Of a stretch of 64,000 nt of DNA, positions 24,507 to 61,515 are shown piece after piece. A program made the translations under genes and the position numbers. Within the stretch, counting starts at the first letter, position 1. Every line of letters begins with the position of its first letter. The stretch is from contig DATJSI010000050.1 in NCBI GenBank assembly GCA_035504215.1, positions 8,340 to 72,339 of the forward strand, in the 5' to 3' direction. The notes below the pieces were generated by a model that saw only the letters and a list, made by a program, of their open reading frames with translations, did no database searches and had not been told where the DNA came from. The DNA is from Mycobacteriales bacterium. GTDB taxonomy: Bacteria; Actinomycetota; Actinomycetes; JAFAQI01.

Positions 24507-24746
24507 GTGGGGTCCTTCTCTAGTTGCCCGCTGTCAGTGTTCGCGCGCGCCAATCGACCCGCGGCTCTGCATGGTCAGCAGACGCGGAGAAGTCGGGAGG
24601 CAGCGCAAATAAGCAGCATAGCCGCGAGAAGGCTCGCTGTCGAGAACGACCCGCTAGTCGGGCCCACCGTATTCAGTCACTGCTGCGCAGCAGGATGCCC
24701 TCCGGGCGGGCCGGCCGTCAAGTCTCCACGCGGAACTGTGCGTTCA

Positions 24747-37783: not shown

Positions 37784-38200
37784 GGACTGCTGCCACTCAG
37801 CGAACGAAACTCGCTGAGGTGCGCGCCTGCAAGGCCGCACTGAGCGCCGCGTGCTGTAGCACGCAAGCGAGCGAGAACGCCGCAGGCATTGCACCCCACT
37901 CAGCGAACGAAACCCGCTGAGGCGTGCGCCTGCAAGGCCGCACTGAGCACCGCGTGCTGTAGCACGCAAGCGAGGGAGAACGCCGCAGGCGTGCGCCTGC
38001 AAGGCCGCACCGAGCGCCGCGTGCTGTAGCACGCAAGCGAGGGAGAAAGCCGCCAAGGTTGCACCCCACTCAGCGTTCGAAACTCGCTGAGGCGTGCGCC
38101 TGCAAGGCCGCACTGAGCGCCGCGTGCTGTAGCACGCAAGCGAGGGAGAACGCAGCAGGCGTGCGCCTCAGCGAGTTTCGCGGCTCAGCGAGTTTCGCGG
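37784..38200. repeat. complex tandem-repeat array: ~4.1 copies of a 68-bp unit interleaved with 3 copies of a 26-bp hairpin unit, ending in two 17-bp direct repeats
   Basis: 68-bp units at ~37819-37886, 37922-37989, 37990-38058 and 38092-38159 (GCGTGCGCCTGCAAGGCCGCACTGAGCGCCGCGTGCTGTAGCACGCAAGCGAGGGAGAACGCCGCAGG). Hairpin units CCACTCAGCGAACGAAACTCGCTGAG at 37793-37818, 37896-37921 and 38066-38091. Tail CTCAGCGAGTTTCGCGG occurs twice. No unique spacers. Confidence 0.85.
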
Positions 38201-38349: not shown

Positions 38350-38440
38350 GGTGCTGACCTTCCTGATGGGCCGGATCTGGGGCGGGACTCCGCCTGCCGG
38401 AAAGCCAGGATAGCCCGGCTGGCGCGGGACGGGCGGTGCG

Positions 38441-38514
38441 TAGCGGAGGCCGGATTTGAACCGGCGACACAGCGATTATGAGCCGCTTGCTCTGCCTGGC
38501 TGAGCTACTCCGCC
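38441..38514 (-). tRNA. tRNA-Met (anticodon CAT)
   Basis: Reverse complement GGCGGAGTAGCTCAGCCAGGCAGAGCAAGCGGCTCATAATCGCTGTGTCGCCGGTTCAAATCCGGCCTCCGCTA. Located upstream of rpmG, as in other actinobacteria. Confidence 0.85.
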
Positions 38515-39384: not shown

Positions 39385-39460
39385 TGGAGCCCCCTTACGG
39401 AATCGAACCGTAGACCTTCTCCTTACCATGGAGACGCTCTGCCGACTGAGCTAAGGGGGC
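39385..39460 (-). tRNA. tRNA-Thr (anticodon GGT), CCA encoded
   Basis: Reverse complement GCCCCCTTAGCTCAGTCGGCAGAGCGTCTCCATGGTAAGGAGAAGGTCTACGGTTCGATTCCGTAAGGGGGCTCCA. Confidence 0.85.
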
Positions 39461-39515
39461 GAGCGGGCACGAGGCTACACGTGCCCCTGCCTTCCGCGGA
39501 AGGCAGTGCCAGCCG

Positions 39516-39597
39516 TGGCGGGTGTTGGGTTCGAACCAACGTAGGCTGTGCCGACGGTTTTACAGACCGCTCCCTTTGACCGCTCGGGCAACCCGCC
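39516..39597 (-). tRNA. tRNA-Tyr (anticodon GTA), long variable arm
   Basis: Reverse complement GGCGGGTTGCCCGAGCGGTCAAAGGGAGCGGTCTGTAAAACCGTCGGCACAGCCTACGTTGGTTCGAACCCAACACCCGCCA. Confidence 0.85.
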
Positions 39598-40160: not shown

Positions 40161-41132
40161 TCAGAGCCAGTTGCGGCGGCGGAACATCATCCAGAGCAGG
40201 ACGACGAAGCCGACGCTGAGCCCGAGTGCAGTGTAGCCGCCGGCTTTCGTTCCGGAGTTCGGGTAGGTCAGCACGTTCATGCCGTAGTAGCCGGTGATCA
40301 CGGCCGGTACGGCGATGATCGCCGCCCACGACGTGACCTGCTTCATGATGAGGTTCATCCGGTTGCCCTGGATGGTGAGGTTCGTCTCGAGGATCGTCGA
40401 GACCAGGTCGCGCAACGAGTCGGTCCAGTCCGCGGCGCGCAGCACGTGGTCGTAGACGTCCTGGTAGTACGGCAGCAGCGCGTCGTCGACCATCCCGCTC
40501 TCGCGGCGCATCAGCGCGTTGACGACCTCACGCGTCGGCAGCACGACCCGGCGCATCCGGACCAGCGACTTGCGCAGCTCGTAGGACTGCCGCTGCACCT
40601 TCGTCCCGGTGTCCGAGTCCGAGAAGAGCAGGTCCTCGAGCTCTTCGATCTGGTCGTCGAGCTGCTGCACGGTCTGGAAGTGACCGTCGACGACGACGTC
40701 GAGCAGTCCCCACATGAGAAAACCGACGCCGTACTTCGCCAGGTTCTTGTTGTCGTCCCACCGCGCGACGATCGGGTCCATCGAGTAGCCCGGCGTCTTG
40801 CGCACGGTGATCAGGTACTGCTTCGAGGCGAAGATCGCCAGCTCGTGCGCGGTCATCTCGCCGTCGGCTTGGAGGCCGACGTCGTAGAGCGAGATGAAGA
40901 TGTGGTCGTCGTAGTGGTCGAGCTTGGGCCGCTGCCGTTCGGCCGTCGCGTCCTCGACCGCCAGCGGGTTGAGCGAGAACTCCTCCGCGATCAGCGCGAA
41001 GTCGTCCTTCGTCGGCGCTTCGAGGTCGAGCCAGACCACGCAGTTCCTGGTTTCGAGATGGTCCGAGATGCGCTGCGGGTCGAAGTTCTCGTCGATGCAG
41101 TTGCCTTCGCGGTAGAGGCGGGTCTTGATCAC
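40161..41132 (-). CDS. corA: CorA family magnesium/cobalt transporter
   Basis: 323 aa. The C-terminal two TM helices carry the YGMNV (GMN) signature. Confidence 0.85.
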   Translation of the reverse strand: MIKTRLYREGNCIDENFDPQRISDHLETRNCVVWLDLEAPTKDDFALIAEEFSLNPLAVEDATAERQRPKLDHYDDHIFISLYDVGLQADGEMTAHELAIFASKQYLITVRKTPGYSMDPIVARWDDNKNLAKYGVGFLMWGLLDVVVDGHFQTVQQLDDQIEELEDLLFSDSDTGTKVQRQSYELRKSLVRMRRVVLPTREVVNALMRRESGMVDDALLPYYQDVYDHVLRAADWTDSLRDLVSTILETNLTIQGNRMNLIMKQVTSWAAIIAVPAVITGYYGMNVLTYPNSGTKAGGYTALGLSVGFVVLLWMMFRRRNWL

Positions 41133-41169: not shown

Positions 41170-41571
41170 TCAGCGCGCCGCGCCTCGCCGGTCGAGGTTG
41201 CCATCCGCCTCTGCCGGCGGCACCGTCGCGACCCAGGCGCCGAGCCGGTCGCGTTCCTGAATGAGCTCCGCGATCCCCGGCTCCGCGTACGAGAACTCCG
41301 GCGACCAGTGCAGCGCGTCGAACGGGCACGCCTCGATGCAGATCCCGCAGTACATGCACAAGGCGTAGTCGATCGCGAAGCGGTCGAGCACGTGCACGGT
41401 GCGCGGCCGTCCGCCAGGTGCGGCCGGCGGCTCGGTCTCCGGATGCGAGTCGATATAGATGCACCAGTCCGGGCACTCGCGCGCGCAGAGCATGCACGAG
41501 GTGCAGTTGTCCTCGACCAGCGCGATGACCCCTCGGCTGCGGTGCGGGAGCCCGGCGCTTTCGGCGTTCAC
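41170..41571 (-). CDS. NuoI-like 2x[4Fe-4S] ferredoxin (orphan paralogue)
   Basis: 133 aa from GTG. Two CxxCxxCxxxCP motifs ([24 protein letters not shown]). The GTG start overlaps the TGA stop of the preceding NuoC-like gene (GTGA). Confidence 0.65.
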
Positions 41572-42137
41572 GACGCCGGCCCCCACGAGCCGGGGTCGGG
41601 CACGCCCGGAGGGCGCGCGCGGCGCCGGCGCGGTGCAGCACTGGGTTCGAGGTCGCGATCGGACTCGCCGGGCTCCTTGGCGCCCGGCCACGGCTTCGCG
41701 ACCCGCGATGCCAGCATGAAGTCCTTGCGCAGCGGGTGCGCGTCGAACCCGTCCGGCAGCAGAAGCGGGATCGGGTTCGGGTGACCCTCGAAGCGCACGC
41801 CGAACATCTCGAGGGTCTCGCGCTCGTGCCAGTTGGCGCCCGGCCACAGTCCGGTGAGGGTGGGCAGGACGCCGTCGTCGTGCGGAACCCGGGTCCGCAG
41901 CAGCACCCCACGCCGCTTCGAAGGCGACCACAACCGGACCACCACCGCAACCCCGGCGTCGAGGTCGTCGTACGCCGAGAGCCAGTCGAAGTAGGTGTAT
42001 GTCGCGCGTTGGTCGTCACGCAGTGCGCTGGCGGCCGCAAGCCAGTCGGCCGCCGGCACGTCGACGGTCAGGCAACCGAACTCCTCCGTGACCGACGCGG
42101 TGGCGCCGACCACAGTCAGGACGTCGGCCGCACTCAC
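41568..42137 (-). CDS. NuoC-like (30 kDa subunit) paralogue
   Basis: 189 aa with the [20 protein letters not shown] NuoC signature. Shorter than the canonical nuoC at 60200-60904. Confidence 0.65.
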
Positions 42138-42607
42138 GCCGCACCCTCGATCCGCTGCTGCAACAGGTCGAGGCCGTCGAGCAACGCCTCCGGTCGGGGC
42201 GGGCAGCCCGGGACGTACACGTCGACCGGGATCAGCTGGTCGATCCCCTTGGTCACGGAGTACGAATCCCAGTACGGTCCGCCGCAGTTGGCGCAGGAGC
42301 CGAACGACACGACGTACTTGGGGTCAGGCAAGCGGTCGTAGACCGCGCGGACCGCGGGCGCCATCTTGTCCGTGACCGTGCCGGAGACGACGACCACGTC
42401 GATCGCATCGGCTCCGGCCACTCCGTCCACTCCGCCGCGCAGCCGGTCCGGGTAGCGCATCGTCGCCGACGCGAACTCCACCGCGCAGCAGGCCAGCCCC
42501 ACGTCGAACACCCACAGCGAGAGCTCGCGACCGCCGGCGAGTGCAAACCGGATCGGCGCCGGCGCGTCGCCAGGAGCGCGGCCGATCGACACCGGGATCG
42601 CGGGCAC
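42134..42607 (-). CDS. NuoB-like (20 kDa, N2 cluster subunit) paralogue
   Basis: 157 aa with [15 protein letters not shown] and GCPPRPE cysteine motifs for a [4Fe-4S] cluster. Divergent from the AtuA-like gene. Confidence 0.65.
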
Positions 42608-42664
42608 AGCCCGACCCTAGTGCGGCGGCTCGGGCTGGATGGGTGGCGCGGTAGCGTCGCGGGC

Positions 42665-44404
42665 ATGGCCAGAGCGGTGCGAATCGGCAACTGCTCCGGC
42701 TTCTACGGCGACCGCTTCAGCGCCATGCGCGAGATGCTCGAAGGCGGCGAGCTCGACGTCCTCACCGGCGACTACCTCGCCGAGCTGACGATGCTGCTGC
42801 TCTGGCGCAGCGCAGCCAAGGACCCCGACCGCGGCTACGGCACCTCCTTCGTCCGCCAGCTCGAGGACTGCCTCGAGTTGGCCTGGGAGCGTGGCGTCAG
42901 GATCGTCGCGAACGCCGGCGGCCTGAACCCGGCCGGGTGCGCCAATGCCGTACGAGAACTGGCCGGGAAGCTCGGCCTGCGGGTCAACGTCGCGCACGTC
43001 GAAGGCGACGACCTGCTCCCCCGCCGCGACGAGCTTGCGGCCGAGGGAATCAAGCTGCCAGCCGACACCGTCACGGCCAATGCCTACCTCGGCGGCTGGG
43101 GCATCGCGACCGCGCTCGACCGCGGTGCGCAGGTCGTCGTCACCGGGCGCGTTACCGACGCCGCGCTGGTGATCGGCCCGGCCGCCTGGTACCACGGCTG
43201 GGCGGTCGACGACTACGACGCGCTCGCGGGCGCGCTCGTTGCAGGCCATGTCCTCGAATGCGGGGCACAGGCGAGCGGCGGGAACTACTCGTTCTTCACC
43301 GAGGTGCCAGGCATCGAGCACGTCGGCTTCCCGTATGCCGAGGTCTTCGAGGACGGCACGTCGGTCATCACGAAGCAGGACGGCACCGGCGGCCTGGTCG
43401 ACATCGGCACGGTCACCGCTCAGCTGCTGTACGAGATCGGTCCGCCGCTGTACCTCAACCCCGATGTCACGGCCGAGTTCGGCAGCGTCGAGCTCAACCA
43501 GGAGGGGCCGGACCGCGTGCGGATCACCGGGCCTGGTGGCGGTGCAGTGCGAGGACATCGCCCGCCCGAGCACACGAAGGTTGCGGTCAACACGCTCGGC
43601 GGGTTCCGCAACTCGATGACCTTCCTGCTCACCGGACTCGACATCGAGGCGAAGGCCGACCTGGTCCGCCGCCAGCTCGCGCCACGACTCGACGGCATCG
43701 GGGACGTCGACTTCTCCCTTGCGAGAACGGACCACGACAACCCGGTGACCAACGAGCAGGCGACGGCCCGGCTGACCGTGACCGTGAAGGACCACGACGG
43801 TGCGCGGATCGGTCGCGAGTTCTCGAGCGCGGCGGTCGAGCTGGCCCTCGCGAGCTACCCGGGTGCGACGATGACCACGCCGCCCGGCGACGCGACGCCG
43901 TACGGCGTCTACCAGCCGCTGCTGCTGCCGAACCACCTGGTCACTCAACGCGTCGTGACCGATGACGGCACCGCCGTCGACATCGAGCCACCGGCCGGAG
44001 CGGCAATCGAGCGCGCCCGGTTGCTGCCGCGTCGGCCGCCGGCGGATCCGCCCGAGGACTGGGGTCCGATCTGGCATGTGCCGCTCGGGTCGCTGGTGGG
44101 CGCGCGCAGCGGGGACAAGGGCGGCGACGCCAATGTCGGCCTTTGGGTGGCGACGGATGCCGCCTACCACTGGCTGCGACACGAGCTCGACGTCGACTGT
44201 TTCAAGGCGCTGCTGCCGGAGACCGCCGGGTTGGACGTCACCCGGTACGAGCTGCCCAACCTGCGGGCGTTGAACTTCGTCGTCGCCGGGTTGCTCGGTG
44301 ACGGTGTCGCGGCATCGACCCGTCAGGACCCGCAGGCAAAGGGCCTCGGCGAGTGGCTGCGTTCCCGGTACATGGAGATCCCGGTCGCCCTGCTCGAGGC
44401 TTGA
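42665..44404 (+). CDS. DUF1446 / AtuA-like (acyclic terpene utilisation) family protein
   Basis: Start MARAVRIGNCSGFYGDRFSAMREMLEGGELDVLTGDYLAE, a strong match to the AtuA N-terminal signature. Confidence 0.7.
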   Translation: MARAVRIGNCSGFYGDRFSAMREMLEGGELDVLTGDYLAELTMLLLWRSAAKDPDRGYGTSFVRQLEDCLELAWERGVRIVANAGGLNPAGCANAVRELAGKLGLRVNVAHVEGDDLLPRRDELAAEGIKLPADTVTANAYLGGWGIATALDRGAQVVVTGRVTDAALVIGPAAWYHGWAVDDYDALAGALVAGHVLECGAQASGGNYSFFTEVPGIEHVGFPYAEVFEDGTSVITKQDGTGGLVDIGTVTAQLLYEIGPPLYLNPDVTAEFGSVELNQEGPDRVRITGPGGGAVRGHRPPEHTKVAVNTLGGFRNSMTFLLTGLDIEAKADLVRRQLAPRLDGIGDVDFSLARTDHDNPVTNEQATARLTVTVKDHDGARIGREFSSAAVELALASYPGATMTTPPGDATPYGVYQPLLLPNHLVTQRVVTDDGTAVDIEPPAGAAIERARLLPRRPPADPPEDWGPIWHVPLGSLVGARSGDKGGDANVGLWVATDAAYHWLRHELDVDCFKALLPETAGLDVTRYELPNLRALNFVVAGLLGDGVAASTRQDPQAKGLGEWLRSRYMEIPVALLEA

Positions 44405-45085: not shown

Positions 45086-46081
45086 TCAGGACGTGCGGGC
45101 GACGACGAAGTCGCAGAGCGACTCCAGCGCCGCCTTCGCCGTCGACGGCGGCAGCGTGTCGAGGGTCGCCCGGGCATCCTCGGCCCAGCGCGCGGTGACG
45201 GCCCGCGCCTCGGCCATCACCGCATGCGCCCGCAGCTGGCTTCGCACGGCATCGAGCGCGCCGTCGTCGGAAAGGTCGCCGTCCAGCGCCGCGACGAGAG
45301 CGGCGTCCTCCTCGCGGCCGGTCGCTCGCAGCATCAGCACCGGCAGGGTCGGCACACCCTCGCGCAGGTCGGTGCCCGGCACCTTGCCCAGCTCGTCCGA
45401 GTCGGCCTCGAGGTCGAGCAGGTCGTCGGAGAGCTGGAAGGCGACGCCGATCCGCTCGCCCCACTGGGTGAGCAGCTCGGTCTCGGCCGGTGAGGCGCCG
45501 GACAGCATCGCGCCGAACCGCGCCGACGTACCGATCAGCGAGCCGGTCTTGTCGACGAGGACCCGCAGGTAGTGCTCGACCGGGTCGGCACCGGGCCCCG
45601 GACCGACGGTCTCGCGGATCTGGCCGTGCACGAGCCGCTCGAAGGTACGGGCCTGCAGCCGCACCGCTTCCGGCCCGAGGTCGGCGAGGATGTCCGATGC
45701 GCGGGCGAACAGGAAGTCGCCGACCAGGATCGCGACCGCGTTGCCCCAGCGCGAGTTCACCGAGTCGGCACCGCGCCGAAGCGTTGCCTCGTCCATGACG
45801 TCGTCGTGGTAGAGCGTCGCGAGATGGGTCAGCTCGACGACGACCGCGGCCGGCACGACGCCGGGCGCTGCCGGGTCACCCAGCTGCGCCGCCAGCAACG
45901 TGACCAATGGGCGGAACCGCTTGCCGCCGGCGGCGACGAGGTGACTGGCTGCCTCGCTCACGAAGTCGTCGGCCGACTTCACCTCGTCGCGCAGCATCGA
46001 CTCGACCGAGGTCAGTCCTTCGGCCAGCACCGCTTCCAGGCCCGGCTCGATGGTGAGGCCGAGGGTGTTCATCGGTGACAT
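45086..46081 (-). CDS. polyprenyl diphosphate synthase (trans-isoprenyl diphosphate synthase family)
   Basis: 331 aa with the first DDxxD (LATLYHDDVMDEATLRRG) and second DD motif (FQLSDDLLDLEAD). Confidence 0.85.
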   Translation of the reverse strand: MSPMNTLGLTIEPGLEAVLAEGLTSVESMLRDEVKSADDFVSEAASHLVAAGGKRFRPLVTLLAAQLGDPAAPGVVPAAVVVELTHLATLYHDDVMDEATLRRGADSVNSRWGNAVAILVGDFLFARASDILADLGPEAVRLQARTFERLVHGQIRETVGPGPGADPVEHYLRVLVDKTGSLIGTSARFGAMLSGASPAETELLTQWGERIGVAFQLSDDLLDLEADSDELGKVPGTDLREGVPTLPVLMLRATGREEDAALVAALDGDLSDDGALDAVRSQLRAHAVMAEARAVTARWAEDARATLDTLPPSTAKAALESLCDFVVARTS

Positions 46082-46117: not shown

Positions 46118-47653
46118 TCAGTGATAGAACGGCAGTGCCTGGTTGGCGAGGTTCAACAGCGGCTGCGGGAAGACGCCGAGCACCACGGTAGCCGCAACGG
46201 CGAGAACCAGCGCACTCGCGGTTCCGCCGCCGGGAGCGACGACCACCGGCCCGTCCTCGATCGGCTCCGCGAAGAACATCATCACGATCACGCGGACGTA
46301 GAAGAACGCCGCCATCGCGCTCGTGATCACCCCGACGATGACCAGCGGCGTCGCTCCGCCGGAGACGCCGGCCGAGAACACGGCGAACTTTCCGGTGAAG
46401 CCCGAGGTCAGCGGGATGCCGGCGAGCGCGAGCAGGAACAGCGCGAATACGCCCGCCACCAGCGGCGAGCGCCGGCCGAGTCCCGCCCAGCGCGACAGGT
46501 GGGTCGCCTCACCGTCCGGGTCGCGCACGAGGGTGAGGATCCCGAACGAGCCGATGGTGGTCACGCCGTAGGTCACCAGGTAGAACATCGAGCCGGACAG
46601 GCCGGCCTTGTTGAGCGCGATCACCCCGATCAGGATGAAGCCCGCGTGCGCGACTGAGGAGTACGCGAGCATGCGCTTCACGTCGGTCTGGGTCACCGCG
46701 AACACCGAGCCGACGACCATCGTGAGGATCGCGACCCCCCAGGCAACCGGCCGCCACTCCCAGCCCAGGCCGCCGAACGCGACGTAGAACACCCGCAGCA
46801 GCGCGCCGAAGGCGGCCACCTTGGTGGCCGATGCCATGAACGCCGTGATCGGCGTGGGTGCGCCCTGGTAGACATCCGGGATCCAGGACTGGAACGGCGC
46901 CGCTCCAACCTTGAACAGCAGCCCGACCGCCAGCAGCGCGAGCCCGAGGAACAGCAGCGTGTCGCTGTGCGTGCCCGTCACCGTCGCGGCCTGGATACCG
47001 GCGAGCGACACCGTGTTGGCGTAGCCGTAGAGCAAGGCAACGCCGTACAGGAAGAACGCCGAGGAGAACGCGCCGAGCAGGAAGTACTTGACCGCCGCCT
47101 CCTGGCTCAGCAGCCGGCGGCGGCGCGCCAGCCCGCACAGCAGGTAGAGCGGCAGCGACAGGACCTCGAGCGCGACGAAGAGGATCAGCAGGTCGTTCGC
47201 GGCCGGGAACAGCATCATGCCGGTGACCGCGAACATCATCAGCGGGAAGACCTCGGTCTGCGCCCGGCCACTGATGATCCCGGCCCGCTCTTCGGACGAG
47301 CCAGGCGTCGACGACGCCTGTGCAACCAGGGCACCGCCACCCATCCCCGGCGAACGGTCCGAGACCAGCAGAACGCTGGCGATGCCGAGCACCGCGATCG
47401 TCCCCTGGAGGAACAGCGTCGGCCCGTCCACGCTGACCGCGGTCCCAGCCGTGACGATGTGGTCGCCGGCGAGAGCAGCGGCCGCGACCAGCGCGCCGAG
47501 CAGACCGAGCAGCGCGACCGCAACCTGCGTGCGCCAGCGCGCGACCGCCGGCACGAACGCATCGACCAGTACGCCGACCACGGCCGCGCCGGCCGGGATG
47601 ATGATCGGCATCAGCGCGTGGTACGCGATGGACGGGGAGTGGAAGTCGCTCAC
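46118..47653 (-). CDS. nuoN: NADH-quinone oxidoreductase subunit N
   Basis: 511 aa polytopic antiporter-like subunit. GTG start. Last gene of the nuo operon. Confidence 0.9.
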   Translation of the reverse strand: MSDFHSPSIAYHALMPIIIPAGAAVVGVLVDAFVPAVARWRTQVAVALLGLLGALVAAAALAGDHIVTAGTAVSVDGPTLFLQGTIAVLGIASVLLVSDRSPGMGGGALVAQASSTPGSSEERAGIISGRAQTEVFPLMMFAVTGMMLFPAANDLLILFVALEVLSLPLYLLCGLARRRRLLSQEAAVKYFLLGAFSSAFFLYGVALLYGYANTVSLAGIQAATVTGTHSDTLLFLGLALLAVGLLFKVGAAPFQSWIPDVYQGAPTPITAFMASATKVAAFGALLRVFYVAFGGLGWEWRPVAWGVAILTMVVGSVFAVTQTDVKRMLAYSSVAHAGFILIGVIALNKAGLSGSMFYLVTYGVTTIGSFGILTLVRDPDGEATHLSRWAGLGRRSPLVAGVFALFLLALAGIPLTSGFTGKFAVFSAGVSGGATPLVIVGVITSAMAAFFYVRVIVMMFFAEPIEDGPVVVAPGGGTASALVLAVAATVVLGVFPQPLLNLANQALPFYH

Positions 47654-49389
47654 TTGCCACTCCCGGCGCCGAAGTGCGACACGGGCTTGCCCAGTCCGGT
47701 GTTGACGTTGACGATCCCGGAATAGGTGTCACACAGCGTGATCGTCAGGCGCGACTGGTAGGCGGCGGTCCCGATGTTCTTCGGTACCGGGCGAGCAAGG
47801 CTCGTCGAACAGGCCGCGTTCGTCGCGGATCGTTCCGGGACCGAGGGGTACGGGTCGTGCGTCCGGACCACCGAGTTGGTCTGCTGCACCGACGGGTTGA
47901 TGAAGTCGAGGATCGGCTTCGGGTAGACACCGAGCGCGACGATCACGACCATGACCGGCGCGATGACCCAGGCCTCCCGCAGGCTGAGGTCCTTGAAGCC
48001 CTCGACCGCGGCCGTCACCGGGCCGTGGATCGTGCGTTGGATCATCCAGAGCACGTAGACGGCGGCCAGCACGATGCCGAAGATCCCCACGACCGCGAAC
48101 CAGCGGTGCGCCGTGAACGTCCCGACCAGCACGAGGAACTCGCTCACGAAGGTCGACATGCCGGGGAGCGCGAGCGCCGACAGCCCGGCGACCATCACCA
48201 TCGCACCGAGCCACGGCGCGACCTTCGCCACGCCACCGAAGTCGTCGACCAGGCGCGAGCCACGGCGCGAGGCCAGGAACCCGACAACGATGAACAGCGC
48301 GCCGGTGGAGAACCCGTGGTTGACCATGTACAGCGTCGCGCCCGAGCCGCCCTGGGTCGTGAAGGCGAAGACTCCGAGCGCGATGAAGCCGAAGTGCGAC
48401 ACCGAGGAGTAGGCGACCAGCCGCTTCATGTCGCGCTGCCCGATCGCCGCCAGCGCGCCGTACAGGATGCCGGTCACGCACAAGCCGAGGACGTACGGCG
48501 CGAGCAGCTTGGAGGCGTAGGGGAACAGCGGGATGCAGAAGCGCAGGAACCCGAAGGTTCCGACCTTGTCCAGGACGCCGACCAGCATCACGGCGGTCCC
48601 GGTCGGCGCCTCGCTCGCGGCATCCGGCAGCCAGGTATGGAACGGCCAGAGCGGCGCCTTGATCGCGAACGCGATGAAGAACCCGAGGAACAGCGCGACC
48701 TGCTCGCCGTGGGAGATGTGCAGCCTCGAGACGAGCACCTGGTAGTCGAACGTGCCGGTGCCGAGCTGGTGGCTCGAGACGACGTACAGGGCGATCACCG
48801 CGACCAGCATCAGCAGGCCGCCGGCGAGGGAGTAGAGCAGGAACTTCACTGCGGCGTACGACCGGCGCGGGCCACCGAAGGACCCGATCAGGAAGTACAT
48901 CGGGATGAGCATCGCCTCGAACAGGACGTAGAAGAAGAACACGTCCAGCGCACCGAACACCCCGACGACCAGCGTCTCGGTCGCAAGCAGCAGCGCGAAG
49001 AACAGCCGCGGCCCGCGACCGCTCGGTGCCGGGCCGTCCGGTCCGTCGACCGGGTCGGCGTCGTGCCACGACGCGAGCACGCAGACCGGGGTCAGCACCG
49101 TGGTCATGAGGATCAGCGCGAGCGCGATGCCGTCCACGCCGAGCGCGTAATGCGCGCCGAACGCCTTGATCCAGGTGTAGTCCTGCACAAACTGGAAGCG
49201 CGCGCCGTTGGTCTTGTAGGCGAACGCCATGACGATCGACACGACCATCGCGACGAGCGAGGCACCGAGCGCCACGAACTTCGCCTGCTGCTCGCGCGCC
49301 TTGGGCAACGCCAGGATCGCGACCACGCCGGCAAGCGGCACCAGCGCCGTGACCATCACCCAGGGGAACCCGCTGTGCACCGCGATCAC
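47650..49389 (-). CDS. nuoM: NADH-quinone oxidoreductase subunit M (with ~50-aa non-hydrophobic C-terminal tail)
   Basis: 579 aa antiporter-like subunit. Its stop overlaps the nuoN start by 4 nt. Confidence 0.88.
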
Positions 49390-51335
49390 CCCACCCTCAG
49401 CAGCACGAGGGTCGCGGCCACCGCGAATGCACCGGCGAGCATCGACAACGCGTACGAACGGACGAAGCCGGTCTGCGCCCGGCGCACCCGCGCGCTCGTG
49501 CCGCCGATGCCCGCGGCGAAGCCGTTGACGACGCCGTCGACGCCCCGGTTGTCGAAGAAGACGAGCGCGCGAGTCAGGTACTGGCCCGGTCGCATGAAGA
49601 CGGCCTCGTTCAGCGCATCACCGAATAGCGACTTGCGCGCCGCCACCGTGATCGGCGTCACGTGCGTCGGCGGCTCGGCCGGCACCGGTCGCATGCCCAC
49701 CCGCCAGTAGGCGATGCCGACGCCGACGAGCACGACCGCGAGCGCGAGCAGGCTGAGCGCGGTTGCTGAAAGCGGCCGGTGCGCGGGTACGGCGATCGCT
49801 CCGACACTCGGCGTCAGGAAGTGCTGCAGGTCACCGTGCAGGATCAGCAGGTAGCCGGAGACCAGCGCGCCGAAGGCGAGGATCGCCATCGGGATGACCA
49901 TGACGTTCGGCGACTCGTGCGGGTGCACGTCCCTCGGCCAGCGCTTGTTGCCGAAGAACGTCATGAGCATGAGCCGGGTCATGTAGAACGCGGTCAGGCC
50001 GGCACCGGCCAGTGCGACGGCGCCGAAGATGTCGCCTCGAGCTCCACCCTGGTCGAGGGCGGACTCGATGATCTTGTCCTTGGAGAAGAACCCTGAGAAC
50101 GGGATGATGCCGATGATCGCGAGGTAGCCGAACGCGAAACACGCGAACGTCCACGGCATCACCTTGCGCAGACCGCCGAAGCGGCGCATGTTGACCTCGT
50201 CGTCGTTGCCGTGCATCACCGACCCGGCGGATAGGAACATGTCCGCCTTGAAGAAGCCATGTGTCAGCAGATGCAGGATGCCAAAGGCATAGGCCGCCGG
50301 GCCGATCCCGACCGCGAGCATCATGTAGCCGATCTGGCTCATCGTGGAGGCCGCGAGCACCTTCTTGATGTCGTCGTGCGCGCACCCGATGACTGCTCCG
50401 AAGATGAGCGTCACCGCTCCCACGATCTCGACCACCAACCGGGCATCCGGCGCCACGTCGTAGATCGCATTGGACCGCGCCACGAGGTAGACGCCAGCGG
50501 TCACCATCGTCGCGGCATGGATCAACGCAGAGACCGGAGTCGGACCCTCCATCGCGTCGAGCAACCAGGACTGCAGCGGGACCTGCGCACTCTTGCCGCA
50601 CGCGCCGAGCAACAGCAGCAGGCCGATTGCCGTCATGGTGCCGCTGTGTGCGTGACCGCTGCGCGCGCCGTTGAACACCCCGTCGAACGCCACTGTCCCG
50701 AAGGTGGTGAACATCAGCATGATCCCGAGCGAGAGCCCGAGGTCTCCGACCCGGTTGACCAGGAACGCCTTCTTCGCCGCGACGGCAGCGCTCGGCTTCT
50801 GCGACCAGAAACCGATCAGGAGGTACGACGCGAGACCAACGCCTTCCCATCCGACGTACAGGACCAGGTAGTTGTCCGCGAGCACCAGCAAGAGCATCGC
50901 CGCGACGAACAGGTTGAGCTCGCCGAAGAAGCGCCGGCGGTCCGGGTCCTCGGCCATGTAGCCGATCGAGTAGACGTGGATCAGGGAGCCGACGCCGGTG
51001 ATCAGCAGGACGAACGTGATCGAGAGCGGGTCCAGAAGCACGTTGGCGTTGACGTGGAAGCCGGCGACCGGCACCCAGCTGAACAGATGCTGGTCGAGCT
51101 GGCGGTTCTCGCCGTGGTCACGACCGATCAACGCGAAGAACTCGATGACCGCGATGACGAACGCGGCGATCGGCGTCGCGCAGCCGAGCAGGTGGCCCCA
51201 GGAGTTCGTCCGGCGCCCGCCGAGCAGCAGAACGGCGGCGCTCAGTGCCGGCAGGAGCACGAGCAGGAAGGTCAGGTCGAAGGCCCCCGTGGCACTGGCG
51301 TAGTGCACGGTCGTCGGGGCGGACGCGAGAGTCAT
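49386..51335 (-). CDS. nuoL: NADH-quinone oxidoreductase subunit L
   Basis: 649 aa, the longest antiporter-like subunit with a C-terminal extension. Confidence 0.92.
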
Positions 51336-51342
51336 CGGCGGC

Positions 51343-51642
51343 TCAGTACTTCAACAGGTTCGCGTCGTCGACGGAGGCGGACCGCCGAGATCGGAAGATG
51401 GACATGATGATCGCGAGCCCGATGACGACCTCTGCGGCGGCGACCACCATCACGAAGAACGCGATGATCTGCCCGTCCAGACTGCCGTTGAGCCGGGCAA
51501 ACGTCACCAACGTGAGGTTGACCGCGTTGAGCATCAGCTCGACGCACATGAACACGACGATCGCGTTGCGGCGCACGAGTACGCCGATCGCGCCGATGGT
51601 GAACAGCACCGCCGACAGATACAGGTAGTAGTCCGCGCTCAT
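51343..51642 (-). CDS. nuoK: NADH-quinone oxidoreductase subunit K
   Basis: 99 aa [48 protein letters not shown].... ATG at 51640-51642 verified. The ORF-track 245-aa upstream extension is rejected. Confidence 0.9.
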
Positions 51643-51646
51643 CCGC

Positions 51647-52426
51647 TCACCGCTCCAGCTCTCGCTCGGTGGCGTCGACGTGGTGCCGAGCGGAGGACAC
51701 CTGCAGGTAGTCGGGCACGCTCGGCGCAGCGATCGAGCCGTCCGGCAGCAGGGCGGGCGTGTCGACCGCGTCGTGGTCGGCATAGACGCCGGGGCCCGGC
51801 AGCGGGCCCATGCCCGCTCCGCCCTTGTCGCGACGGGCCTCCATGCGTTCCCGCTGGCTGCGCTGCTTGGTTTCGCTCGGCTCTCGGTGCGCGAGCACCA
51901 TCGCGCCGAGGCCGGCCGTGATGAGGAGCGCGCTCGTGGCCTCGAAGGCGAACACGTACCGGCTGAACAGCAGGTTGGCGATCGCGGCGACGTTGCCCTG
52001 GCCGTGCTCCGCCGCCGTGACGCCCTTCGGCGAGAACCCCGCAAGGGCGGTGGCCAAGGTGGCGACCAGCAGCACGGCAAACCCGAGCCCGATGACGAAC
52101 GCGGCCAGCCGTTGACCGCGCAACGTCTCGACCAGGGAGTCCATCGAGTCGACGCCGATCAGCATGAGCACGAACAGGAAGAGCATCAGGACCGCGCCGG
52201 TGTAGACGACGACCTGGACGACCGCGAGGAACGGTGCGTTCTCGGTCGTGTAAAACGCCGCGAGGCAGAGCATCACGATCGCGAGCAGCAGGGCGGCATG
52301 GATCGCACTGCGGGCCAGCACCATGCCGACCGCTGCGGCCACCGCGATCGGGCCGAGGATCCAGAACACGAAAGCCTCGTGCAGCGGGGGCGAGCCGGAC
52401 GCTGCCGCGAGCAGCGTCCCCGTCAC
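51647..52426 (-). CDS. nuoJ: NADH-quinone oxidoreductase subunit J
   Basis: 259 aa; hydrophobic N-terminal domain with a hydrophilic C-terminal tail. Confidence 0.88.
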
Positions 52427-53106
52427 GACCGGCCCTCCTTCGCGGTGGGCGTCGCCGGCCGATCGTAGTAGTCCTTCTCGTCGTCGCCGAGGCGCATCGG
52501 GTGCGGCGGCGCTTCCATGCCGGGCTGGAGCGGAGCGAGCAGCTGGTCCTTGGTGAAGATCAGGTCGACCCGGCTGTCATCAGCCAGCTCGTACTCGTTC
52601 GACATCGTGAGCGCCCGGGTCGGGCAGGCCTCGATGCACAACCCGCAGAAGATGCACCGCAGGTAGTTGATCTGGTACACCGCGCCGTACCGCTCGCCGG
52701 GTGAGTAGCGCGCCTGTTCGGTGTTGTCCGCACCCTCGACGTAGATCGCGTCCGCGGGGCACGCCCACGCGCACAGCTCACAGCCGACGCACTTCTCCAA
52801 GCCGTCCGGGTGTCGGTTCAGCAGGTGCCGGCCGTGGTAGCGCGGCTCGGTCGGGAGCTTCTCCTCCGGGTACTGCTCGGTGACCGGCTTGGTGAGCATC
52901 GTTCGGAAGGTCACCCCGAAGCCGGCGACCGGCGCGAAGATCTCCTTCAGCAACGACTGCTTGCGCTCGGGCGCGGCCGTGCTGCTCGGCGTCTCCGGCG
53001 TCGTTGCGGGGCCCTGCTGAAGTGCTCCGGGCGCGGTTTCGGTGTCGGGCTCGACCCGCTCCACGCTGGAGTCCGGGCGGGTCGGGGGGACGTCTTCGTC
53101 AGCCAT
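52423..53106 (-). CDS. nuoI: NADH-quinone oxidoreductase subunit I
   Basis: Start at MADEDVPPT (53104-53106). Two CxxCxxCxxxCP ferredoxin motifs ([24 protein letters not shown]). The ORF-track upstream extension is rejected. Confidence 0.88.
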
Positions 53107-54424
53107 CGAGCACCTCGGTGGAGTCCGCCCCTCGCTCGAGCTCCGGCACCGGGCCCGCAGCCGACAGCACGGGCACCGGGTAGCCGGTCGTATCCCCGGC
53201 TTCCCGCTCGGCGGCGGCCTCGAGCTCGGCCAGCTCGGCGTCGGCCGCGGCCTGGCTCGCGCGCGACTCGGCGACAAAGGTCCAGATCAACACGACCGCC
53301 GCAACCGGGATACCGACCCAGGCCAGCGTCTGCACGCGGGTCTTCCCCTCGTTGGTGAGCTCACGGAAGGCGGCCACGATCAACAGCCACACCAGGCTGA
53401 ACGGGATCAGCACCTTCCAGCCCAGCCGCATGAACTGGTCGTAGCGCAGTCGCGGCAGCGTGCCGCGCAGCCAGATGAAGGTGAACAGCAGCACGAAGAT
53501 CTTGCCGAGGAACCACAACACCGGCCACCAGCCGTGGTTGAGCTCGTCGTTGCCGATCAGCGACAGCGGCCACGGCGCCCGCCAGCCACCGAGGAACAGC
53601 GTGGTCGCGAGCGCACTCACGGTCGTGACGTTGATGTACTCGGCGAGGAAGAACATCGCGAACTTCAGCGACGCGTACTCGGTGTGGAAGCCGGCGACCA
53701 GCTCGCTCTCGGCCTCCGGCAGGTCGAAGGGCGCCCGGTTGGTCTCGCCGACCATCGCGATGAGGTACATCAACAGCGACGGGATCAGGGGCAGCGCGTA
53801 CCAGAGCTTTGCCTGTGCCGACACGATCTGGCTGGTCGACAGCGAACCGGCGTACAGGAAGACACCGGCCAGGGCGAGGCCCATCGCGACCTCGTAGGAG
53901 ATGACCTGCGCGGCCGAGCGCAGCGCGCCGAGCAACGGGTACGGCGACTGGCTCGACCAGCCGGCCAGCACGATCCCGTAGACCCCGATCGAGGCCATCG
54001 CGAGGATGAAGAGCACGGCGACCGGTAGGTCGGTGATCTGCAGCGGCGTGCGGTGCCCGCCGATGGACACGACCGGCCCCACCGGGATGACCGCGAAGGA
54101 CAGGAACGCGGGAGCACTCGCGACGACCGGAGCCAGGATGTACAGCGGCTTGTCGACCATCGCCGGGATGAGGTCTTCCTTCAACGCCAGCTTGATGCCG
54201 TCGGCGAGCCCCTGCACCACGCCGAACGGGCCGACCCGGTTGGGGCCGAGCCGCGCCTGCATGAAGCCGATCACCCGGCGCTCGGCCCAGATCATCAGCA
54301 GGGTCGTGACTACGAGGAAGACGAACACGACGAGGCACTTGACGAGGGTCAGCCACCACGGGTCGTTGCCGAACGCGTTCAGGTGCGTGCCACCGGCGGC
54401 CGCGGCCGAGACGAGATGCATCAC
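53099..54424 (-). CDS. nuoH: NADH-quinone oxidoreductase subunit H (with acidic C-terminal extension)
   Basis: 441 aa; the conserved NuoH N-terminus ...[26 protein letters not shown]... Confidence 0.9.
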
Positions 54425-56841
54425 GACCCTCCCGCCGCTGCCAGCCGGACCACGGCGCCCGATCCTGCCCCGAGGGTCGCGTACAGATGCGAGCCAACGG
54501 AGTACGTCGGGAGCCAGACCACCTGGTCCGGCATCTCGGTGATCGCGACCGGAAGCGTAACCGTGCCGCGATCGGTGCTCACGCTGACCTCGGCGCCGTT
54601 GTCGATCCCGAGCGCGTTCGCGCTCGTCCGGGACAGTCGGGCCACCGCGGGCTTGCGAGTGCCCGCGAGGTAGGGCTCGTGCTCCTGGAGGCGACCGTCG
54701 TCGAGCAGGTGGTGCCAGGTCGCCAGCAGCGCCTCACCCGAGCCGGGGGTGGTGGCGGCCGGTGCCGGGTAGACCGGCGCCGGCGGGCGCGGACCGGCCC
54801 AGGAGCCGAGCATCGCGATCTGCGCGCGGATGCTTCGCGCCGTGGCGGTGTCGAGCTCGACGCCCAGCTCGGTCGCGAGCCGGTCGAGCACCCGGCCGTC
54901 GCTCAACGCACCCGTCGACTCGAGGGTCGCGTCGAACGGCCGAGCCCGGCCCTCCCAGTCGAGGAAGCTGCCGGCCTTCTCGACCACCGGCGCCACCGGG
55001 AACACCACGTCGGCGCGGTCGGTCACCGCGGAGTCCCGGATCTCGAGCGAGACGACGAACGGCGCCGCCTCGAGCGCCCGGAGCGCCAGGTCGGGGTCAG
55101 CGAGATCGGCCGGGTCGACCCCAGCCACGACCAGCGCGAGCTGCCCGGCCGCTGCCGCCTTTACGATCGCGTCTCCGTCACGGCCCGGCTCGGACGGCAG
55201 GGCACCCCAGAGCTTCTCCACCTGCTCCCGCGCCGCGGAGTAGGCGAGCGCGCGCCCGCCGGGCAGCAGGTTGGGCAGGCACCCGGCGTCGACCGCTCCC
55301 CGGTCGCCGGCCCGCCGCGGCACCCAGACCAGCCGCGCGCCGACCGCATCCGCCAGGCCCACGGCGGCGCTCAGCGCGCCCGGTGACATGGCCAGCCGCT
55401 CGCCGATCATGATGACCGCGCCGGGCTGCCGCAGCGCCTCGCCCGCCTCGCGCAGGCCGGCGTGGGAGAAGTCGTCCTTCCCGAGGGCGGAGAGCACGTC
55501 GGCCTCGCCACCCGGGCCGGCGGCGAGCAAGCGCCCGTGCAGCTTGGTCAGACCCGCGGTGGCGAACGGAGCGATCCCGAACACGTCGAGGCCGTCCTTC
55601 TGCGCCGCCTTGCGCAGGCGCAGGAAGACGATCGGCGACTCCTCTTCGGGCTCGAGCCCGGCCAACAACACGGCCGGTGCCGCGTCGAGATCGGCGTACG
55701 TCGTCTCGAGGTAACGCCCAGCTACCTGCGCGGCCAGGAACTCCCGCTCCTCGGCCGAGTGCGGTCGCGCCCGAAAGTCGATGTCGTTCGACCCGAGTGC
55801 CACCCGCGCGAACTTCGAGTATGCGAACGCATCCTCGACGGTCAGCCGGCCGCCGGTCAGCACGCCGGTCCGGCCGCGCCACTGCGAGAGCCCGGCGGCG
55901 GCGCGGGCGAGCGCCTCGCTCCACGACGCCTCGACCAGGTAGCCGTCAGCGTCGCGAACCAGCGGGGTCAGGATGCGGTCCCGAGCGGTCGAGTAGCCGA
56001 ACCCCCACCGGCCCTTGTCGCAGTTCCACTCCTCGTTGACGTCCTGGTCGTCGCCGGCCAACCGGCGCAGCACCTTCCCGCGCCGCCAGTCGGTTCGCTG
56101 CTGGCAGCCGGACGCGCAGTGCTCGCACACCGACGGCGTCGAGACCAGGTCGAAGGGCCGGGCCCGGAAGCGGTACTGCGATCCGGTCAGCGCTCCCACC
56201 GGGCAGATCTGCACGGTGTTGCCGGAGAAGTACGACGTGAACGGCTCTTCTTCGAAGATCGCTACCTGTTCGAGCGCACCGCGCTCGAACAGGTCGATGA
56301 ACGGGTCGCCCGCGATCTGCTGCGAGAAGCGCGTGCACCGCGCGCACAGCACGCACCGCTCACGGTCCAGCAGGACCTGGGACGAGATCGCGATCGGCTT
56401 CTCGTAGGTGCGCTTCACGTCCTTGAACCGGCTCTCGGCCGGGCCGTGGGTCAGCGTCTGGTTCTGCAGCGGGCACTCGCCGCCCTTGTCGCACACCGGG
56501 CAGTCGAGCGGATGGTTCAGCAGCAGGAACTCGAGGTTGCTCTCCTGCGCCTTCAATGCGATCGGCGAGGTGAGCTGGGTCTTGACCACCATGCCCTCGC
56601 TGACCGCGACGGTGCACGAGGCGACCGGCTTGCGCTGTCCCTCGACCTCGACCAGGCACTGCCGGCACGCGCCGATCGGGTCGAGCAGCGGATGGTCGCA
56701 GAACCGCGGCACGTCGATGCCCGCCAGTTCGGCCGCGCGGATGATCAGCGTGTCCTTGGGAACCCGGATCGCGATGCCGTCGATCGTCGCGCTCACGAGC
56801 TCGACCGGGGTCACGGCGGGGTCGACCGCTTCGGCCGTCAC
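54421..56841 (-). CDS. nuoG: NADH-quinone oxidoreductase subunit G
   Basis: 806 aa. N-terminal 2Fe-2S and 4Fe-4S cysteine motifs (CRQCLVEV; [17 protein letters not shown]). Confidence 0.92.
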
Positions 56842-58139
56842 TTCTTCGCTCCTGCCGAGCTGAACAGCGTCGAGGCATCCGGGTCGAACGGGCAGCCGTT
56901 GTTCTCCCAGTGAGCGACGTACTCGTCGCGGAAGTACTGCACCGAAGAGATGATCGGGCTCACCGCGCCGTCCCCCAGCGCGCAGAAGGCCCGTCCGAAG
57001 ATGTTGTCGCAGGTGTCGAGCAACGTGTCGATGTCGCTCTCGTCCGCATCGCCCGCCTCGAGCCGTTCGAGGATCTGGACCATCCAGTACGTGCCTTCAC
57101 GGCACGGCGTGCACTTGCCGCACGACTCGTGCGCGTAGAACTCCGTCCACCTCAGGACCGCTCTAACCACGCACGTCGTGTCGTCGAAGATCTGCAACGC
57201 CTTGGTGCCGAGCATGGAACCGACGTCGGTCATGCCCTCGTAGTCCAGCGGCGCGTCGAGATGCTCCGCCGTGAGCAGCGGCGTGGAGGAGCCACCGGGC
57301 GTCCAGAACTTCAGCTCATGCCCCTCGCGGACGCCGCCGGCGAGGTCGAGCAACTCCCGCAGGGTGACACCGAGCGGCGCTTCGTACTGGCCGGGACGGG
57401 TCACGTGTCCGGACAGCGAGTACAGCGTGAAGCCCGGCGACTTCTCGCGCCCGAAACCGCGGAACCACTCGACGCCGCGCGCGATGATCGGCGGGACGCT
57501 TGCGATCGACTCGACATTGTTGACGACGGTCGGGCTCGCGTACAGGCCGGCGATCGCAGGGAACGGCGGGCGCAGGCGCGGCTGGCCGCGGTAGCCCTCG
57601 AGCGAGTCGAGCAGCGCGGTCTCCTCGCCGCAGATGTAGGCGCCCGCGCCCGCGTGCACGACGACGTCGAGGTCGAAGCCGGTGTCGAACAGGTTCTTCC
57701 CGAGCAGGCCGGCGGTGTAGGCCTCGGCGACCGCAGCCTGCACCCGTCGTACAACGTGCAGGACCTCGCCCCGGATGTAGATGAAGGCGAGGTTCGACCG
57801 GATCGCGAAACAGGTGATGACGATGCCCTCGACCAGCGAATGCGGGTTCGCGAGCATGAGCGGGATGTCCTTGCAGGTCCCGGGCTCGGACTCGTCGGCG
57901 TTGACGACGAGATAGTGCGGCTTGCCGTCGTCCTGCGGGATGAACCCCCACTTGCCGCCGGTCGGGAAGCCCGCGCCGCCTCGACCTCGTAGCCCCGAGT
58001 CCTTCACCGCGGTGATGACGTCGTCGGGTGAGATCTCGGTCAGCGCCTTGCGCGCCGCCGGGTAGTCCCCGCCGTAGCCCTCGAGCGTCCACGGCTTCTC
58101 ATCGCCCCAGTTGGCGGTGAGCACAGGCGTCAGGTTCAT
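56838..58139 (-). CDS. nuoF: NADH-quinone oxidoreductase subunit F
   Basis: 433 aa; FMN/NADH-binding [13 protein letters not shown] and a C-terminal 4Fe-4S cysteine cluster. Confidence 0.93.
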
Positions 58140-58194
58140 CGCGGCGACCCCGCGCGGTCGTGGCGCTCAGGAGCAGCGGACCGGTACGGCGAGC

Positions 58195-58830
58195 TCATGC
58201 GGTCTCTCCGCGCTCGTTGGCCAGGTTGAGCCCTTCCAGGCTGGCCGGGCCGGCCGCGATGCCCTCGTCCGCACGTCCGTCGGGGAAGCCGGCGAGGATC
58301 CGCTCCGCTTCCTTCCAGGTGCACACCGACGCCGCGCCACGGGTCGGCGTCACCGGCTCGCCCGCCCGCAGCGCGTCGACCAGCTCACGGGCCGACGCCG
58401 GGGTCTGGTTGTCGAAGAACTCCCAGTTGACCATCACCACAGGTGCGTAGTCGCACGCCGCGTTGCACTCAACGTGTTCGAGCGAGACCTTGCCGTCGTC
58501 GGTGACGCCGTTCTGGGTCGAGATGCCGGTGTGCTCCTTCAGCGCGGCGTAGATGGCGTCGCCTCCCATCACGGCGCACAGCGTGTTGGTGCACACGCCG
58601 ACGTGGTAGTCGCCGACCGGGCGCCGCTTGTACATCGTGTAGAAGGTCGACACGGCGCTGACCTCAGCCTTGGTCAGGTCGAGCAGCTCGGCGCACAGCG
58701 CGATCCCTTCCGTGGTGACGTAGCCCTCCTCGCTCTGCACCAGGTGCAGCAAGGGCAGCAACGCCGAGCGCGGCTTCGGATACCGCGCGATGATCTCGGC
58801 CGCCATCCGCCGGGTGTCGTCGCTCAGCAT
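58195..58830 (-). CDS. nuoE: NADH-quinone oxidoreductase subunit E
   Basis: Start [32 protein letters not shown] (ATG 58828-58830 verified). 2Fe-2S thioredoxin-like cysteines. One-nt overlap with the nuoD stop (TGATG). Confidence 0.9.
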   Translation of the reverse strand: MLSDDTRRMAAEIIARYPKPRSALLPLLHLVQSEEGYVTTEGIALCAELLDLTKAEVSAVSTFYTMYKRRPVGDYHVGVCTNTLCAVMGGDAIYAALKEHTGISTQNGVTDDGKVSLEHVECNAACDYAPVVMVNWEFFDNQTPASARELVDALRAGEPVTPTRGAASVCTWKEAERILAGFPDGRADEGIAAGPASLEGLNLANERGETA

Positions 58831-60203: not shown

Positions 60204-60904
60204 GCGTAGGACCGCCGCTCGTCGGGTGGCGGCACGGTCGCGCCCTTGTACTCCACCGGGACCCCGCCGAGCGGGTAGTCCTTGCGCTGGGGGTGCCCCG
60301 GCCAGTCGTCCGGCATCTCGATCCGGGTCAGGCCGGGGTGCCCGTCGAAGACGATCCCGAAGAAGTCCCACGTCTCGCGCTCGTGCCAGTTGGCGGTCGG
60401 GTAGACCTCGGTGGCGCTCGGGATGTGCGGATCCTCCGCGGTCACCGACACCTCGAGCCGGATCCGGCGCCGGAAGGTCATCGACAGCAGGTGGTAGACC
60501 GCGTGCAGCCGCCGGCCGGTCGGGTCGTCGGGATAGTCGGCGCCGGAGACCGACGCGCACATCTCGAAGCGCAGCCGCGGGTCGTCGCGCAGCGCCCGGA
60601 GCAGCTCGGCGAGCGGCTCCCGGCGTACGTAGAGCGTCAGCTCGCCGCGATGCACCACGATGCGCTCGATCGCGTCGCCGAAGTCGGGGTAGGCCGACTC
60701 GAGCGCATCGGCGGCCTCGTCGAACCAGCCACCGTAGGGGCGCGGCGAGGACACCAGCTGCGGCGGGCGGACGACCAGCCCGCCGAATCCGGAGGTGTCG
60801 CCGAAGCCGGACGCGCCGAACAGGTCGTGGCGCTTGCCGCCGGCCCCGGTCGGCTCATCGCTCGAGGGCGCCGCGGCGACGCCCTCGTCGGTCGGTTCGG
60901 TCAC
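60200..60904 (-). CDS. nuoC: NADH-quinone oxidoreductase subunit C
   Basis: GTG start overlapping the nuoB TGA (GTGA). Contains [19 protein letters not shown]. Confidence 0.88.
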
Positions 60905-61509: not shown

Positions 61510-61515
61510 GTCAGC

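Follow-up and report, generated by a model that had tools for sequence, protein, structure and literature searches.

A three-gene derivative of the actinomycete nuo2 operon, encoding NuoB-, NuoC- and NuoI-like proteins, as a candidate membrane-detached electron-transfer module

The 64,000-nucleotide stretch analysed here (the window; contig DATJSI010000050.1 of the Mycobacteriales bacterium assembly GCA_035504215.1) contains, in addition to a canonical complex I operon, three translationally coupled genes at 41170-42607 on the minus strand, which encode paralogues of the complex I subunits NuoB, NuoC and NuoI, here termed B2, C2 and I2. Gene order and sequence similarity show this trio to be the B2-C2-I2 portion of nuo2, a second complex I gene cluster of actinomycetes, lying in the original chromosomal slot of nuo2, with the genes for A2, H2 and J2-N2 cleanly deleted. 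The preferred reading, with a probability of about 0.6, is that this nuo2 remnant is kept as a membrane-detached electron-transfer module with three iron-sulfur clusters. The nuo2 operon is already known, and it is the trio-only derivative that is new here; no description of such a trio-only or nuoBCI gene set turned up in the literature searched.

The first gene, B2 (42134-42607, minus strand, 157 amino acids), encodes a NuoB/PSST-like protein with an N2-type [4Fe-4S] site and is the orthologue of the nuo2 gene NuoB2. It is followed on the same strand by C2 (41568-42137, 189 amino acids), a NuoC/30-kDa-like scaffold subunit without a cofactor, and by I2 (41170-41571, 133 amino acids), a NuoI/TYKY-like ferredoxin core with two [4Fe-4S] clusters. 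The start of C2 overlaps the stop of B2, and the start of I2 overlaps the stop of C2, in both cases through a 4-nt GTGA (plus-strand TCAC at 42134-42137 and 41568-41571). An earlier note on this DNA had described the three coupled genes, the GTGA joining I2 to the C2 stop and the intact N2 cysteines of B2, and these observations are borne out by the open reading frames (ORFs), by the family matches and by the 33-40% identity of the three proteins to the window's own NuoB, NuoC and NuoI (40% for B2 and NuoB).

The family matches of the trio are, by their scores, far beyond chance. B2 matches Oxidored_q6 (PF01058) at 1e-24 and 87 bits (cut-off 27), and passes the NCBIfam cut-offs for the NuoB subfamily (NF005012, 171 vs 116 bits; TIGR01957, 160.9 vs 142.7 bits). 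Its matches in the PDB favour the PSST subunit of complex I (6e-41) over MbhJ (3e-25) and HycG (8e-22). C2 matches Complex1_30kDa (PF00329) at 1e-34 and 119.7 bits (cut-off 22.5) and has NuoC chains as its top PDB matches, but itself scores below the cut-off of NCBIfam NuoC_fam (90.8 vs 122.45). The best family for I2 is NuoI (TIGR01971), yet its score is also below the cut-off (66.9 vs 113.05 bits). All four N2 ligands of B2 are present (C40, C41, C105 and C135, within the tandem CC, GxC and PGCPP motifs), and the corresponding columns are invariant across all trio-only and full-operon sequences. I2 contains two CxxCxxCxxxCP motifs for the N6a and N6b clusters (41323-41505, minus strand; individually 41470-41505 and 41323-41358), both of which are intact in 120 of the 120 listed I2 relatives. 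The C-terminal tail of C2 (residues 148-189; 41571-41696, minus strand), containing RRRxxPPGVPxPxxWGP, is specific to the nuo2 family: it is absent from canonical NuoC and conserved in full and trio-only forms alike. Since the tail is still conserved after loss of the membrane genes, its binding partner is predicted not to be one of those membrane subunits.

The origin of the trio was established from its relatives. Homologs of C2 number in the thousands and are about 190 amino acids long; after the 99%-identical P0001, they show at most 70% identity to it. The loci compared were the best 80 of more than 450 in a scan of one genome per species and the best 80 of more than 450 in JGI metagenomes, annotated by tblastn with the window proteins and the reference proteins of locus L083, with gene order confirmed by gene calls with Pfam matches. 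The genome loci are from Kribbella, Actinomadura, Nonomuraea, Spirillospora, Streptomyces, Micromonospora, and Frankiales or Mycobacteriales metagenome-assembled genomes. The gene after C2 encodes a NuoH paralogue (H2) in 136 of 165 loci, within a long A2-B2-C2-H2-I2-J2-K2-L2-M2-N2 operon, whose products share 60-67% (B2), 55-70% (C2) and 71-77% (I2) identity with those of the window. In Streptomyces, nuo2 (SCO4599-SCO4608; nuoA2, B2, H2-N2) has been described as an additional, incomplete complex I cluster whose function is unclear, with an unlinked nuoD2 reported (PMC3765725, PMC8388888, PMC9239103).

The chromosomal position of the trio is informative. Apart from the window's own organism, the locus with the C2 closest in sequence (70%) is L083, where the gene order is nuoM-nuoN-hepS-...-ACAD-AtuA(-) / NUDIX-A2-B2-C2-H2-I2-J2-K2-L2-M2-N2-corA-...-yajQ(-); L084 is alike. 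In the window the order is nuoN-hepS-GNAT-AtuA(-) / B2-C2-I2-corA-yajQ(-), placing the trio in the same chromosomal slot, and AtuA is also found upstream of the full nuo2 operon in both L083 and L003. The trio is flanked by intergenic gaps of 12-57 nt and 37 nt, and no fragments of the lost nuo2 membrane genes were found in the window.

The genes that the trio lacks are present in the window solely as canonical copies. The 14-gene nuoA-N operon (nuo1, approximately 46118-61850, minus strand, the same strand as the trio) is complete and separate, as the earlier note had it, although the distance from its nuoN end to B2 is 3.5 kb rather than 5 kb. Its nuoD (58833-60203) is the sole NuoD-like sequence of the window, no second nuoD being found there or in the approximately 7.5 kb beyond, and the sole matches in the window to A2, H2, J2, K2, L2, M2 and N2 are likewise nuo1 genes, in agreement with the reported absence of any NuoD or membrane-subunit gene beside the trio. 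The lack of NuoD extends to the parent system: no NuoD-like sequence was matched at E<=1 in 169 nuo2 loci (1.47 Mb in total). The possibility of a NuoD hidden in the gaps of full operons was also considered and rejected, as the gaps are occupied by an opposite-strand Ser/Thr kinase, an HHH-motif protein, low-complexity extensions, and ORFs without a Pfam match. In Nonomuraea and Actinomadura, nuo2 is split between H2 and I2 by opposite-strand genes (L064, 9191-10501; L020, 7637-8419), one locus being interrupted by the Ser/Thr protein kinase and the other by the HHH-motif protein.

Many nuo2 operons have a further neighbour, KorAB, a two-subunit 2-oxoacid:ferredoxin oxidoreductase (KorA, POR/POR_N domains; KorB, TPP_enzyme_C). 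It lies divergently upstream of nuo2 in 52 loci from many actinomycete genera (L084, 5994-8944; also L003, L011, L100, L103, L142, L156, L165 and others), and it still adjoins the trio-only locus L168/L169 (L168, 2868-5785). This neighbourhood suggests that nuo2 may be a ferredoxin-linked enzyme.

Loss of the membrane genes is accompanied by loss of the protein elements that, by alignment, face H2 and the quinone channel. Every trio-only I2 begins just before the PxRSRG motif (8 residues before it in the window), the N-terminal helix and the TxxYP segment being gone. This helix is present in 67 of 67 operons containing H2, but in none of 9 trio-only loci, and in full-length I2 its counterpart by alignment, in solved structures of complex I, is the TYKY/NuoI N-terminus. 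In the Thermus structure that Baradaran et al. described in 2013, the N-terminal helix of NuoI is said to lie on NuoH, and the co-variation of the I2 helix with H2 is consistent with such a resting place. In B2, residues 46-72 (42392-42472, minus strand) are the degenerate counterpart of two quinone-channel loops of NuoB/PSST, where full operons read GVIPFAPGPRQAD. The PRQ[AS]D motif is found in 104 of 104 H2-containing operons vs 1 of 7 trio-only loci (Fisher test, 3e-9, uncorrected for phylogeny), and the window B2 reads GADAID at this site. Window residues V63 and D67 align at R77 and R81 of ovine and bovine PSST, which are located in the NuoB loops lining the quinone channel, paired with ND1 glutamates and touching the quinone (PMC10212512, PMC7614227). 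The window B2 also lacks the nuo2-type C-terminal tail.

The distribution of substitutions follows the same division. At positions at least 95% invariant in full operons (104 full-operon sequences in the case of B2), departures in trio-only sequences amount to 18.8% of cells in B2, 6.8% in C2 and 9.6% in I2. Those of B2 fall nearly all within residues 24-93, with almost none in the cluster-binding C-terminal half. The substitutions in the window B2 show no shift toward the residues of its own canonical NuoB, which argues against re-adaptation to the NuoH of the canonical operon (NuoH1).

The reduced arrangement is not confined to the window: 10 contigs carry the same trio, and they occupy 3-5 distinct positions in the family tree. 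The earlier note had named lack of conservation in relatives as a refuting outcome, and this does not apply. The loci of the window (L001 being the same sequence), L085, L017 and L166/L167 are syntenic with each other; the others are L116, L060 and L130, and L168/L169. L134 and L136, which are counted with the trio-only set, keep C2-I2 alone. Most of the relatives are metagenomic contigs; metagenome-assembled genomes with a trio-only locus include GCA_025929175.1, GCA_025980465.1, DATAVK01, JAODNA01 and the ERZ27256528 bin. In distance-based neighbour-joining trees (100 bootstraps, on B2+C2 and C2+I2), the window is nested among full operons, and the window clade has a bootstrap of 97 with B2+C2. 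With C2+I2 it is placed beside L083, L060 and L130 group together with a bootstrap of 100, L116 lies near L003, L134 lies inside a 98-99% clade of otherwise full operons, and L168 groups with Streptosporangiales-type operons. The sequences of the C2/I2 junction differ among the trio-only groups, pointing to separate deletion events, and the trio-only form appears to have arisen at least 3 and at most 5 times, a count that is uncertain. Short forms of I2 that lack the helix but keep both cluster motifs account for at least 27 of the 120 nearest cluster representatives of this protein, indicating that the reduced form is not rare.

Other partial forms of nuo2 also occur. In the Kribbella loci (L006, L009, L012-L014 and about 25 others; e.g. 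L009, 5435-8895), the reduced nuo2 consists of B2, C2, a 284-amino-acid ORF without a Pfam match and H2 (NADHdh), with no A2, I2 or J2-N2 within 12 kb. Kribbella, which retains H2, also retains the PRQAD loop of B2. In L134 (6930-7932) and L136, there is no B2 within 7 kb upstream, and the conserved WHERE motif of C2 reads WPERE.

Purifying selection on the trio was assessed from the ratio of nonsynonymous to synonymous substitution rates (dN/dS), calculated by the NG86 method. Between the window and L085, the trio genes have dN of 0.20-0.28 and dN/dS of 0.22-0.39, and the flanking genes, with proteins 74-98% identical, have dN of 0.015-0.19 and dN/dS of 0.03-0.24; with dS saturated, these values of dN/dS are to be read as upper bounds. 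Pairs of intact nuo2 operons give dN/dS of 0.11-0.25 for B2, 0.12-0.31 for C2 and 0.11-0.28 for I2. By this measure C2 and I2 are about as constrained as in intact operons, and B2 is relaxed. All trio-only loci have intact frames, with no frameshifts, and preserve the start/stop overlaps. No cluster ligand is substituted in any relative, and the sign of pseudogenization that the earlier note had proposed to look for is thus absent. Flanking proteins of L017 are 65-83% identical to those of the window, and comparison of the two loci dates the trio-only state to before their split. These observations show indirectly that the trio is not pseudogene-like and is still functional under purifying selection.

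A mechanism can be proposed on this basis. All seven membrane-subunit genes (A2, H2 and J2-N2) have been deleted, leaving B2, C2 and I2 coupled between hepS/AtuA and corA/yajQ. The products would no longer act as a quinone reductase or proton pump, but would form an off-membrane chain of three [4Fe-4S] clusters, two on I2 and the N2-type cluster on B2, with C2 as the scaffold. The NuoD of complex I may be recruited as a fourth subunit, giving an assembly that resembles the soluble intermediate known as the Q-module; recruitment of the resident NuoD by B2-C2-I2 is plausible, given that complex I biogenesis itself passes through a Q-module subassembly free of the membrane (PMC8762328). The loss of the elements facing NuoH and the quinone speaks against a working quinone reductase built with the borrowed membrane arm of complex I; NuoD alone may be borrowed. 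Electrons may be exchanged with low-potential partners such as ferredoxin or KorAB. If the trio is a soluble module with a role of its own, it would be the first derivative of the complex I Q-module to function outside a membrane complex. A broader proposal, tentative and rather doubtful, is that a soluble NuoB-NuoC-NuoI redox module, with or without a borrowed NuoD, has evolved repeatedly by shedding of the membrane arm and may serve KorAB-like low-potential enzymes.

Several points weigh against retention as a detached module. Since the N2 cluster of complex I sits at the NuoB-NuoD interface, a NuoD-less complex of B, C and I is, to our knowledge, without precedent. No KorAB was found in the window. 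B2 of the window clade evolves about 2x as fast as B2 of intact operons. The saturation of dS makes the dN/dS values rough, and the Fisher test on PRQ[AS]D takes no account of shared ancestry. Support for the deeper branching of the trees is weak, hence the range of 3 to 5 origins, and the other partial forms (B2-C2-X-H2 in Kribbella and C2-I2 in L134) are equally well explained by gradual decay of a dispensable operon.

The alternative that survives best, although unlikely, is an isoform swap, in which B2, C2 and I2 replace NuoB, NuoC and NuoI in the canonical complex I and use its NuoD and membrane arm, yielding a hybrid with another electron donor or different redox tuning. The proximity of nuo1, the one source of NuoD and NuoH within the window, would favour such an arrangement, as would the proposal of nuo/nuo2 hybrid complexes for Streptomyces (PMC9239103; PMC3765725) and the absence of NuoD from nuo2 loci, implying that even the full operon needs borrowing or an unlinked D2. 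However, subunits docking on NuoH should retain the loop arginines of NuoB and the helix of NuoI, as the NuoB and NuoI encoded by nuo1 in this genome do. Instead, the helix is missing from all 9 trio-only loci compared and PRQAD from all but one of 7, and the window B2 is not converging on NuoB1 residues.

Next, and improbable on present evidence, is the suggestion that the trio is a decaying relic, a non-functional or nearly neutral leftover of a dispensable nuo2 that is being lost piecemeal. The variety of partial architectures (the trio itself, and those of Kribbella and L134) accords with piecemeal loss, and B2 has long branches and degenerate loops; moreover, at approximately 70% GC, long ORFs can persist by chance. 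Against this are the low dN/dS of the trio, itself an upper bound, the constraint on C2 and I2 at the level of intact operons, the intact frames and preserved 4-nt overlaps, and the fact that neither the Fe-S motifs nor the C-terminal half of B2 have taken a single substitution. The trio-only state has also persisted throughout a clade in which the flanking proteins are by now only 65-90% identical, and the helix-less I2 forms noted above have lost neither cluster motif.

Descent from a group-4 [NiFe] hydrogenase-related complex (Ehr, Mbh, Ech) or an Fpo/Fqo-type complex, which the earlier note had entertained, is very improbable, and this origin was rejected on operon content and sequence similarity. 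The note's idea of a remnant of a larger complex holds, the parent being the complex I paralogue nuo2 rather than these enzymes. All these families do share subunits of the small-subunit, NuoC-like and 2x[4Fe-4S] types. However, 136 of 136 full relatives are nuo-type: they encode homologues of NuoA/H/J/K/L/M/N, and none has a gene for a large subunit, FpoF or FqoF. B2 scores only 28 bits against FrhG (cut-off 245), in addition to passing the NuoB cut-offs and matching PSST over MbhJ and HycG.

Several known systems can be compared with the membrane-detached module favoured here. The trio is orthologous to subunits of the Streptomyces nuo2, exemplified by the A2-B2-C2-H2-I2-J2-K2-L2-M2 operon of Streptomyces silvisoli (L033; 56% identity for C2, 77% for I2), and like it is encoded without NuoD, E, F and G. 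By contrast, the window lacks the seven membrane genes, the I2 helix, the PRQAD loop and C-terminal tail of B2, and the adjacent KorAB. The Q-module of complex I (NuoB-NuoC-NuoD-NuoI; NDUFS7/S3/S2/S8) matches the trio in the fold of each of the three subunits and in its cofactors (N2, N6a and N6b), whereas the trio has no dedicated NuoD or elements facing the quinone channel and ND1, and its C2 carries the family-specific tail. The 11-subunit enzymes without an N-module (cyanobacterial and chloroplast NDH-1, archaeal Fpo and Campylobacter Nuo) resemble the parent nuo2 in lacking NuoE/F/G (PMC4453560), and nuo2 presumably uses an electron donor other than NADH, the KorAB neighbour suggesting ferredoxin. 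All of these enzymes retain a NuoD homologue and a membrane arm, but the window trio has neither.

The nuo2 cluster is widespread in soil actinomycetes, including antibiotic producers, and is odd in encoding no NuoD. Its KorAB neighbour gives the parent enzyme a candidate role as a ferredoxin:menaquinone oxidoreductase. The trio-only form constitutes a natural deletion series, in which the B2 loops and the I2 helix appear to depend on H2, and the three clusters and the C2 tail appear to be retained independently of it. Should the trio prove to be an active soluble module, it would mean that a stand-alone redox device could be made from the complex I Q-module; if it is only a slowly decaying relic, it would be of minor interest.

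The neighbouring genes are as previously described, with a divergent AtuA-family gene upstream of B2 (42620-44404, plus strand) and corA downstream of I2 (40161-41132, minus strand); hepS (45086-46081) follows nuo1. Both AtuA and corA were considered as functional partners of the trio and rejected, since they also flank full operons and reflect inherited synteny. Located 37 nt downstream of I2 on the same strand, corA is probably co-transcribed with the trio. Throughout the clade, corA is the same-strand gene that comes after the nuo2 operon or the trio (window, 40161-41132; L083, 17889-18860; also L084, L085, L017 and L166), and in L083 the end of N2 and the beginning of corA share 4 nt, such that corA may be co-transcribed with nuo2. 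A scan for sigma-70 promoters gave no match, and the sole terminator-like site lies inside corA, a result that is uninformative for a high-GC actinomycete.

Further downstream, three minus-strand tRNA genes lie between a PhyH-like gene and yajQ: tRNA-Met(cat) at 38440-38514, tRNA-Thr(ggt) at 39385-39460 and tRNA-Tyr(gta) at 39515-39597. Just upstream of the tRNA-Met gene is a tandem repeat array (37793-38200) with periods of approximately 67, 103 and 170 nt, each present in about 2 copies at 93-95% matches, which gives rise to overlapping spurious ORFs. Identical genes are found in the ENA contig ERZ27256528 k141_251815 (110.7 kb), which starts at approximately position 24708 of the window and extends approximately 71 kb past its end, which implies that the window comes from another or longer assembly of this organism. 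Beyond the window end, only the synteny of cytochrome c biogenesis genes, hemL and menG is seen.

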